Positions 7,537-8,810 of a stretch of DNA of 10,748 nt are shown in pieces. The translations under genes and the position numbers were made by a program. The first letter of the stretch is position 1, and each line of letters begins with the position of its first letter. The notes under the pieces were generated by a model, which was given only the letters and a program-made list of their open reading frames with translations, was not told where the DNA came from and ran no database searches. Source of the stretch: a virus; the UHGV virus genome UHGV-0162320, one strand, 5' to 3'.

Positions 7537-7976
7537 GCAGAGTCACCGCGATTATCTCCGCTCTGGTTATCTGCATCATCGTCTGTCTGTCATGGGCTGT
7601 TAATCATTACCGTGGTAACGCCATTACCTATAAAGAACAGCGCGATAAAGCCACGTACATCATCGCTGACATGCAGAAGCGTCAACGTGATGTAGCAGAA
7701 CTCGACGCCAGATACACAAAGGAGCTTGCTGATGCTAACGCGACTATCGAAAGTCTTCGTGCTGATGTTTCTGCTGGCCGTAAGTGGCTGCGCGTCAAAG
7801 CAGTCTGTCCGGACATGCATAAAACCACCGCCACCTCCGGCGTGGATGATGGCTCCAGCCCCAGACTTACTGACACCGCTCAACGGGATTATTTCGTTCT
7901 CAGAGAGCGCATCGAAACCATAACTAAACAATTGAATGGCCTGCAAGAGTATGTGAGATCACAGTGTTCATATTAG
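7533..7976 (+). CDS. Rz: i-spanin Rz
   Basis: Start overlaps R stop (ATGA); N-terminal 27 residues [27 protein letters not shown] match lambda Rz as recalled, the remainder homologous but diverged. Confidence 0.9.
7732..7923 (+). CDS. Rz1: o-spanin Rz1 lipoprotein, embedded in +1 frame of Rz
   Basis: ATG 7732 with GGAG upstream; lipobox LAVSGC; proline-rich [15 protein letters not shown]...TPLNGIIS matches lambda Rz1 [15 protein letters not shown]...TPLNGIIS. Confidence 0.8.
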
Positions 7977-8014
7977 AAAAGTCTTATCATAAGATTTTTG
8001 TATATGGATGCATT

Positions 8015-8389
8015 ATGTCTCAATACGCTCACGCTGCTTTAATCGCTTATCATTTGGTTGCTGATAGCTCAATGCCTCCTCGTGATGCATGGGATGCAGC
8101 TGTCGCTGAGGTTACAGAAAGCGAATCGTCAAGAAAGAAGGTATGCCCAAGGGCAACATTTCTCGCCCTGGCGGATAGCGGTTACCTCAAGAATGTAAAA
8201 CCACAGCATGGAGAGAAAAAGGGCGGTAAGTTGTACCAAAGGGCAATTGAAGTTGCGAATCTGATTCTTGATTTGCCCGGAATTAGCAAAGCTGAGCTAG
8301 TTGATAAAACTTGCTATAAAGACAGGCAAGGGTCTTATGACATTGCTCTAACTCTCGCTCAGCACGGATTACTCCAGCGTCCTCAATAA
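8015..8389 (+). CDS. hypothetical protein (124 aa) in the post-Rz cargo slot; start uncertain (ATG 8015 or GTG 7964)
   Basis: Track ORF 7964..8389; AT-richer than neighbours; weak RBS; followed by a terminator. Confidence 0.55.
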   Translation: MSQYAHAALIAYHLVADSSMPPRDAWDAAVAEVTESESSRKKVCPRATFLALADSGYLKNVKPQHGEKKGGKLYQRAIEVANLILDLPGISKAELVDKTCYKDRQGSYDIALTLAQHGLLQRPQ

Positions 8390-8406
8390 TATATTAAGTG
8401 ATTTAT

Positions 8407-8431
8407 GGCCTCGCTTTTAGCGGGGCTTTTT
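8407..8431 (+). terminator. rho-independent terminator after cargo ORF
   Basis: GGCCTCGC-tttta-GCGGGGC stem (one G-U pair) followed by TTTTT. Confidence 0.6.
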
Positions 8432-8487
8432 CATATCTGAATCTCACCATGCATATCATCACCTGACTGGAACGTCAGGAGAATTCG

Positions 8488-8670
8488 TTACCGGGATTCG
8501 ATAAAGGTATTCAAGCCTGACACATTATGCGCTGTATCGTCGCCGTATTCCCGCATTAACCATGACCGTAGCCCTACGGGGAACTCCTTCTGCGCGAGTG
8601 TGCGGGAATAATCAAAAACGATACACACCGGGTTTTTACCGCGTTTATGATTCGCGGGTTTGTCCCTCAT
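8488..8670 (-). CDS. hypothetical small protein (60 aa), opposite strand, in the position lambda uses for bor
   Basis: Track ORF 8488..8709; internal ATG 8670 with AGGA about 10 nt upstream; no recognisable family; hairpin CCTGAC-tggaac-GTCAGG (8452-8469) just 3' of it. Confidence 0.3.
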   Translation of the reverse strand: MRDKPANHKRGKNPVCIVFDYSRTLAQKEFPVGLRSWLMREYGDDTAHNVSGLNTFIESR

Positions 8671-8810
8671 GCTCGCCAGTCCTGTGCGGGGGTGGAAGAA
8701 ACAGGACACTTACACTGATTCTTGTGAGCATGATGCTATGCCTTTCTGGATTATCCCGATGCCATTCATGCAGGGTGCTGTATCAGACGCTCGTCAGAGC
8801 TGTCAGGCTG

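Follow-up and report, generated by a model that had tools for sequence, protein, structure and literature searches.

An accessory DUF6979 gene and a conserved RNA-like element between Rz and cos in a lambdoid late region

The interval between the spanin gene Rz and the cos region was examined in UHGV virus genome UHGV-0162320, a stretch of 10,748 nt that is referred to here as the window. The initial annotation had placed two unrecognised cargo genes in this interval, a 124-aa open reading frame (ORF1) and a convergent 60-aa open reading frame on the minus strand (ORF2). The reading favoured by our comparative analysis, to which we would assign a probability of roughly 55%, is that the region comprises one accessory gene, a moron unit encoding a DUF6979 protein with a likely role in conflict, and one RNA element of the phage backbone, rather than two cargo genes. 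As to the two genes originally claimed, one is true and already catalogued as a DUF, the other is a phantom open reading frame, and the finding as it was stated is fairly ordinary. Worth following up are the association of DUF6979 with defence islands and the conserved, apparently undescribed RNA-like element, which is present even in lambda. A bolder, joint proposal can be put forward only tentatively: that this ~180-nt sequence is an undescribed cis-acting RNA of the late mRNA that defines moron sites, and that DUF6979 is a widespread, phage-captured accessory or regulator of defence islands.

The DUF6979 gene and its cargo unit

ORF1 is a real, selected and sporadically distributed DUF6979 gene. 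In profile searches its residues 1–121 aligned with positions 1–127 of the 127-position Pfam DUF6979 profile (PF22399; E = 1.2e-28, 100.3 bits against a cut-off of 27). A match to PHROG 5039 (E = 4e-72), whose function is listed as unknown, was also obtained, and an identical protein is held in RefSeq as WP_000084843.1, "DUF6979 family protein". The open reading frame can therefore be recognised as a full-length member of both Pfam DUF6979 and PHROG 5039, a family for which no function is known. A search of the available literature found no mention of the DUF6979 family. The AlphaFold2 model of the protein is all-helical, with seven helices and a predicted local distance difference test score (pLDDT) of 90.5. 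Both phmmer and profile searches against the PDB returned noise only (Ogt, E = 0.67; SLH domain, E = 0.24), and comparison of sequence and fold gave no match that yielded a function. ORF1 showed no homology to a housekeeping phage function, the outcome that the initial annotation had named as refuting its reading.

Within the family, the motif S-x3-KK-x-C-P-R contains an invariant Cys44; across 32 diverse members, the window protein included, C44 and G56 are both invariant, and the fuller motif reads S-x3-KK-x-C-P-[RK]-x-aFLgLce-G. The KKxCPR motif and the C-terminal QGSYDI block of ORF1 were both recovered in the full-length match. The enterobacterial phage clade differs from its relatives in lacking the second Cys of the common GLCE motif, where it has ALAD instead, and in carrying QGSYDI where the family commonly reads NGQMDVV. 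Comparison of the E. coli and Salmonella versions of ORF1 gave synonymous and nonsynonymous divergences of dS ~0.87 and dN ~0.16, and the resulting dN/dS of 0.19 places the gene under purifying selection.

A profile search of 1.84 billion representative proteins recovered 521 clusters of the family, nearly all of them stand-alone proteins of 120–140 aa. These are spread over many bacterial phyla and the archaea, and most members are found at non-phage loci. Among deposited phages, ORF1 was present only in mEp460_4F5, 4A7, D2, 1W, 3W, Lambda_4C10 and SfI, always beside the Rz/endopeptidase gene. Of 5426 complete E. coli genomes, 249 (4.6%) have the gene, each in a single copy, compared with ~3900 that carry the flanking backbone. 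This sporadic distribution marks ORF1 as genuine cargo, in the position that bor occupies in lambda. The original placement of cargo after Rz is thus borne out for the 124-aa open reading frame, which lies between Rz and the conserved element and has its own terminator.

The gene begins 38 nt past the Rz stop codon, at the ATG at 8015. The start at 7964 given initially corresponds to a GTG further upstream in the same frame, within the final part of Rz, from which the protein would be 141 aa long; the 124-aa open reading frame itself is present as described. The AT-rich character noted for the cargo also needs qualification: the shift is real but modest for ORF1 (GC 0.461, and 0.434 for the unit 7977–8437, against 0.495 for both Rz and R), and the DNA under ORF2 is not AT-rich. 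A terminator of its own had been claimed for ORF1 and was readily located as a stem followed by a T run (folding energy −17.1 kcal/mol; z = −3.85). Its stem is kept in Salmonella copies, in which the loop differs.

Upstream of the gene, the leader contains a candidate sigma-70-like promoter, TTCATA (7967–7972) and TAAGAT (7990–7995) separated by 17 nt, which matches at 8 of 12 positions and so scores below the threshold of a promoter scan set at 9 of 12; at that threshold nothing was found for ORF1. A perfect 13-bp palindrome, TCTTATCATAAGA (7982–7994), overlaps the weak −10-like hexamer and is kept in Salmonella prophages, and it may be an operator. The leader is ~87% identical in the Salmonella copies, against 78% for the whole unit. 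The promoter and operator roles of the leader are putative assignments, made from these features of the sequence.

At the DNA level, the similarity to Salmonella prophages spans window 7900–8437 (78% identity), from the last part of Rz to the terminator inclusive, and goes no further. In Salmonella, too, ORF1 starts 38 nt after Rz, with KilA-N and a packaging module of another kind (Terminase_3) behind it; the 38-nt spacing is common to prophages of E. coli, Shigella (SfI) and Salmonella whose terminases differ. Leader, coding sequence and terminator thus appear from the sequence to be a self-contained block, a unit of the moron type. An insertion sequence (IS) element with an rve transposase was seen between Rz and the DUF6979 gene in one Salmonella prophage (positions 3710–4914 of its stretch), an interval that tolerates insertion.

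The moron concept is that of Juhala et al. (2000, as cited in PMC4104026). As with bor and other late-operon morons, the cargo unit in the window is sporadic, has its own terminator and a composition unlike that of its neighbours, and sits between Rz and the conserved element upstream of cos. It differs from bor in that ORF1 bears no sequence relationship to Bor and is encoded on the opposite strand; Bor is a lipoprotein, whereas ORF1 specifies a cytoplasmic-looking helical protein with a weak candidate promoter. Lysogenic-conversion genes are known to reside behind Rz in lambdoid prophages, and the DUF6979 protein can be added as one recurrent occupant.

The conserved element and the minus-strand open reading frame

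Beneath ORF2 lies a ~180-nt element with a GC content of 0.55, which was detected in 402 deposited phages (in 385 with ≥80% of its 180 nt covered) and in ~3900 of the 5426 E. coli genomes (~72%). It is located between lambdap78 and bor in the lambda-type phage HK629, between ybcV and borD in the K-12 prophage DLP12 and at about 46.87–47.0 kb in lambda, and is also found in Stx phages. Across 118 IMG/VR contigs the element was oriented as Rz wherever Rz was on the fetched stretch, and was always downstream of Rz and upstream of a small terminase gene, whether Nu1/NohD-type, DUF1441-type or HNH plus TerS. Where the arrangement is minimal, ~11 nt separate it from the Rz stop and cos comes within ~100 nt downstream, and on both sides the flanks switch between unrelated sequence types. 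Comparison of the same slot in related prophages had been suggested by the initial annotation; in these contigs the interval from Rz to the element was either empty or occupied by Bor, by DUF6979, or by KilA-N and a hypothetical gene. The interval from the element to cos carries YbcV/p78, YlcI/DUF3950 or YbcW/p79. With constant sequence in the middle and variable cargo on either side, the element can be taken as a backbone landmark delimiting two moron slots, and it provides a precise reference point for both slots in prophage annotation.

ORF2 was examined as a gene in its own right. The open frame reported initially is present in the window and in identical prophages, where RefSeq lists it as hypothetical protein WP_001205132.1, and its translation gave tblastn matches in 424 phage records, similarity still being detected in lambda at 44% identity. 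That this phage lineage has a genuine small protein gene here, of 60 or 73 aa, is nevertheless very improbable. Only 3 of the 84 distinct homologous copies keep the frame open; stops or frameshifts break it in the other 81, among them those of HK629, DLP12, Stx1 and Stx2 phages, ev017 and ev207, despite DNA identities of 75–95%. No match to Pfam, PHROG or PADLOC was found, the promoter scan gave no minus-strand promoter-like site upstream, and the pattern of substitutions across ORF2 preserves base pairs of the plus strand. The proposal of a second cargo gene is accordingly not supported, not only on the broken frame but also because the underlying DNA is the most conserved backbone of the region and is not sporadic. 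ORF2 is most likely a chance, lineage-specific open frame over a conserved non-coding element. Plus-strand frames at 8562–8915 and 8660–8977 were also considered as genes and rejected, having no family matches, indels in relatives and an odd composition.

Consensus folding was used to compare the two strands of the element. With 72 distinct copies, RNAalifold gave −17.05 kcal/mol and two long-range helices on the plus strand, against −5.3 kcal/mol and a different, weak fold on the minus strand. For 26 tested pairs, standard pairs were seen in 98.3% of alignment cells on the plus strand and in 87.7% on the minus strand; for the plus-strand structure, 98.8% of cells were paired, a value that slid controls (33–66%) did not approach, and none of 500 shuffles reached the observed values. 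Double changes were seen in 4–5 pairs (e.g. C-G to G-C in the lambda/DLP12 clade), and in a longer alignment of 88 copies hairpin 3 covaried between GC (50), UA (17) and GU (13). Variation at paired sites was strongly asymmetric, with 14 sites varying between Watson-Crick and G·U pairs and 3 sites showing A·C, or 246 G·U against 4 A·C when counted as cells. Together, the covariation and the preponderance of G·U relative to A·C point to a fold formed by plus-strand RNA. A covariance model of the core scored 138.7 bits on the plus strand of the window, with no match on the minus strand; it also matched mEp460 and DLP12, and gave no match in the Salmonella, Dickeya or PICI (phage-inducible chromosomal island) loci.

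No entry of Rfam 15 matched the element at E ≤ 1; the only two matches in the window were at chance level (E 0.2–0.7), and both lay outside it. Identification with a known prophage small RNA (sRNA) was considered and set aside: the known anti-sRNAs AgvB and AsxR lie near pR' (PMC4104026), and a 2025 review of phage sRNAs lists none at this site (PMC12197685).

The main rival to an RNA is a role at the level of DNA, as a protein-binding site, as a recombination "linker" for the exchange of lysis and packaging modules, or as a regulatory region for minus-strand morons such as bor. Such a role appears unlikely, if by no means negligible. The primary sequence is very well conserved, unpaired stretches included, and the flanks switch between unrelated types exactly at the ends of the element, both of which a DNA site would explain. 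In lambda and DLP12 the element is upstream of bor, and the HK629 record annotates the bor promoter inside it. The annotated −10 (TACAAT) is, however, confined to the lambda type, other copies having TACGGC; the PhoP-box-like repeat of borD is outside the element, and the element persists where bor is absent. The compensatory changes and the asymmetry between G·U and A·C, in cells and sites alike, are moreover not expected of a double-stranded DNA site. On the position of the borD TGTTTAgggttTGTTTA repeat and the lack of conservation of the HK629 −10 elsewhere, the more specific candidates of a bor promoter or a PhoP site were rejected. The repeat itself was observed in K-12 DLP12 as a perfect direct repeat of TGTTTAgggttTGTTTA between the element and borD (positions 3420–3445 of its stretch); it resembles a PhoP box and is absent from the window.

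Several observations do weigh against the RNA reading. All copies come from closely related enterobacterial phages (75–100% identity), which leaves few covariation events, and these are not independent of one another. Taken by itself, the window sequence folds about as well on one strand as on the other (z −2.2 and −1.8), and the call of strand therefore rests on the comparative data only. The unpaired stretches are also highly conserved, which would equally fit a DNA or protein-binding site, and one lineage has a 9-nt deletion that removes the small hairpin.

If the element does function as RNA, it would be transcribed on the plus strand within the Q-antiterminated late operon, as its position downstream of Q, S, R and Rz suggests, and would fold into two long-range helices plus hairpins. 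Most likely it would then work in cis on late transcripts, perhaps by affecting their processing or stability or by separating the lysis message from the head message, and it would mark the two flanking positions at which morons insert. Among the structured RNAs that act in cis in lambdoid phages are the put antitermination RNAs of HK022, the cIII thermosensor of lambda and sib. Like these, the element would be a conserved multi-helix RNA in a long phage operon, presumably acting in cis; it differs from them in its location, between Rz and cos in the late operon, and no sequence similarity is claimed. If confirmed, it would represent a new cis-element of the lambda late operon, in the best-studied phage and in most E. 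coli genomes, and would explain the recurrent phantom "hypothetical protein" calls made by annotation pipelines.

A plus-strand promoter-like site, TTCATA-18-TATCAT (9 of 12 positions), was noted at 8430–8481, between the DUF6979 terminator and the element, and is followed by a small hairpin (stem ~8463–8480, CCUGAC/GUCAGG). Site and hairpin could provide the element with a transcript of its own in this lineage.

Neighbourhoods and possible role of DUF6979

For distant relatives of ORF1, 80 loci were fetched and 111 flanking proteins at 70 distant loci were classified, the counts being made without a matched background control. Among these proteins were HNH (6), McrB-type AAA_5 (4), N6_Mtase (3), and Mrr, Eco57I, PDDEXK_4 and Schlafen/AlbA_2 (SLFN) (2 each); PADLOC gave matches to REase_II, MTase_I and candidate systems. 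When only tightly coupled neighbours were counted (same strand, within ~50 nt; n = 20), 15 belonged to conflict or defence classes, comprising SIR2 (2), Schlafen, HNH (4), GmrSD, McrB-like (3), PDDEXK_4, a type I S subunit, an MmeI-type restriction–modification (R-M) enzyme, DUF4145 and DUF4357/RAMA. Native loci of this kind include Paenibacillus DUF6979-SIR2 and DUF6979-HNH pairs and, in Flavobacteria, the order nuclease-DUF6979-McrB. This richness in defence and R-M neighbours holds for distant DUF6979 relatives and not for the phage copy.

In a Dickeya zeae prophage, DUF6979 occupies the second moron slot of the late operon, immediately before the holin gene (positions 4433–6402 of its stretch). 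There it lies 1 nt downstream of a gene for a 269-aa protein (family label CHP02642 on the record) with weak, sub-threshold similarity to DnaJ zinc-finger repeats, and beside a divergent PD-T7-4 (DUF4145) defence gene (E = 2e-64). This pre-holin moron site resembles a minor hot spot for defence genes. In Methanoculleus, DUF6979 was found on an integrase-bearing element.

The context of the distant relatives, which in bacteria and archaea share operons with nuclease or NADase defence effectors and with R-M genes, suggests a role for DUF6979 in phage–host conflict, although by its sequence the family appears to belong to no known defence system. The phage copy would most probably be active in conflict between phage and host or between phages. 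The favoured form of this role is that of an effector-independent accessory, either a nucleic-acid-binding regulator or a modulator of defence; a small regulator or modulator fits best because the neighbouring effectors differ so much. In a prophage it might shield the lysogen or else, late in infection, weaken the defences of the host. Weak hints of a regulator are provided by the basic conserved motif and by the palindrome TCTTATCATAAGA over the weak promoter-like site, in a leader whose conservation exceeds that of the coding sequence. Controller (C) proteins of R-M systems and BrxR/WYL-type proteins are effector-independent regulators of defence loci. The analogy to these is functional only: DUF6979 has no significant similarity in sequence or fold to Xre-type, WYL or other helix-turn-helix (HTH) regulators, and its phage copy has no adjacent effector.

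Other findings count against a role in conflict. Clustering of the neighbours at the 70 loci, all against all, revealed no single conserved partner family, the longer DUF6979 proteins carry no second Pfam domain and are uninformative as to fusions, and the association with defence genes is indirect, coming from a census without a matched control, while at the phage locus itself no effector is adjacent. PADLOC-DB v2 gave no match to the ORF1 protein at E ≤ 1 and none to 32 family members at E ≤ 0.01. The weak promoter (8 of 12 positions) implies that ORF1 may be expressed only late in the lytic cycle, and such late expression is easier to reconcile with a lytic-cycle role than with protection of the lysogen.

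A different explanation, that DUF6979 is an accessory of the late lytic cycle, adjusting for instance the timing of lysis or packaging, expressed on a pR' transcript together with S, R and Rz and without a role in defence, seems to us rather improbable. The placement of ORF1 on the strand of the lysis genes, at a constant 38 nt from Rz in E. coli and Salmonella alike, would be expected of such a protein, as would its position just upstream of the holin gene in Dickeya and the failure of the promoter scan to find a strong promoter of its own. Yet the gene is missing from >95% of E. coli genomes, most of which carry the same lysis/cos backbone, and the unit has its own terminator. Morons of all kinds commonly insert on either flank of the lysis cassette, so that any cargo would be expected to adjoin lysis genes, and most DUF6979 members are found at non-phage bacterial or archaeal loci beside nucleases and R-M genes. 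Embedded as the family is, across bacteria and archaea, in restriction, SIR2, GmrSD and McrBC-type loci, DUF6979 offers a concrete and inexpensive candidate for phage-challenge and anti-defence assays, and a first functional handle on an uncharacterised family of >500 clusters.

Layout and mosaic make-up of the window

The features of the interval and of the surrounding lambdoid late region are collected in Table 1. The Rz gene, labelled "lysis protein" by RefSeq in identical prophages, and the cos region form its left and right borders, so the slot does lie between Rz (stop at 7976) and cos, as first described. Because the mEp460 and HK629 records begin at the terminase gene, record ends could not be used, and cos was placed by alignment with HK629 and DLP12 upstream of Nu1/nohD; the lambda sequences in this alignment are those we take to be cosQ and cosN. 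The context of cosN reads ACG|GGGCGGGAGCGT|CGCGG in the window and ACG|GGGCGGCGACCT|CGCGG in lambda.

Table 1. Features in and around the Rz–cos interval (window coordinates)
Feature	Position	Strand	Remarks
DUF6979 protein gene (ORF1)	8015–8389	+	124 aa from ATG 8015; real cargo gene
Cargo-unit leader	7967–8014	+	Candidate weak sigma-70-like promoter, palindrome, weak GGA ribosome-binding site; read from sequence
Intrinsic terminator	8407–8432	+	Stem 8407–8427, 9 bp with 6 GC pairs, then TTTTTC; closes the cargo unit
Conserved ~180-nt element	8528–8707	+	Read as structured RNA on the late-transcript strand
P1	8534–8540 with 8618–8624	+	Consensus fold
P2	8546–8556 with 8600–8610	+	Consensus fold
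Small hairpin	8572–8574 with 8579–8581	+	Consensus fold
Hairpin 2	8639–8643 with 8653–8657	+	Consensus fold
Hairpin 3	8679–8685 with 8701–8707	+	Conserved loop GGUGGAAGAAAC
ORF2	8488–8670	−	60 aa from ATG; 73 aa from GTG, to 8709; RefSeq hypothetical protein WP_001205132.1; most likely not a gene
Q antiterminator	5474–5896		Lambdoid late region
Lambda-family holin	6697–7056		Lambdoid late region
Lysozyme (R)	7060–7536		Lambdoid late region
Rz spanin gene	7533–7976	+	Left border of cargo slot; Pfam Phage_lysis, E = 1e-39
Rz1	7726–7923		Embedded in Rz
cos region	8813–8853	+	Right border; by alignment with HK629 (lambda-type) and DLP12
cosQ-like GGGTCCT	8813–8819	+	By alignment with HK629 and DLP12
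cosN 12-nt cohesive-end core GGGCGGGAGCGT	8842–8853	+	By alignment with HK629 and DLP12

The window as a whole (1–10748) is a three-part mosaic with joints near 6766–7472 and 8811–8884. Positions 1–7472 match a Myo-type prophage (99.2%), 6766–8884 match an mEp460-like lambdoid phage, and 8811–10730 match a PICI adjoining cspD/clpS (99.8%). These three source elements occur at separate sites within the same genomes (e.g. BH100N and F11), and their joined arrangement was found in no complete E. coli genome. The joints coincide with shared repeats, namely the holin/lysozyme region and cos, and the make-up of the window points to either an assembly chimera or a real recombinant.

Two cos-like copies corresponding to window 8811–8900 were observed in the PICI of E. 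coli BH100N, at 7001–7090 and 9535–9608 of its stretch, with cosQ and cosN of both nearly identical to those of the phage. The copies flank a gene for a ClpP-protease/major-capsid fusion, and the second lies just upstream of a DUF1441 small-terminase-like gene.

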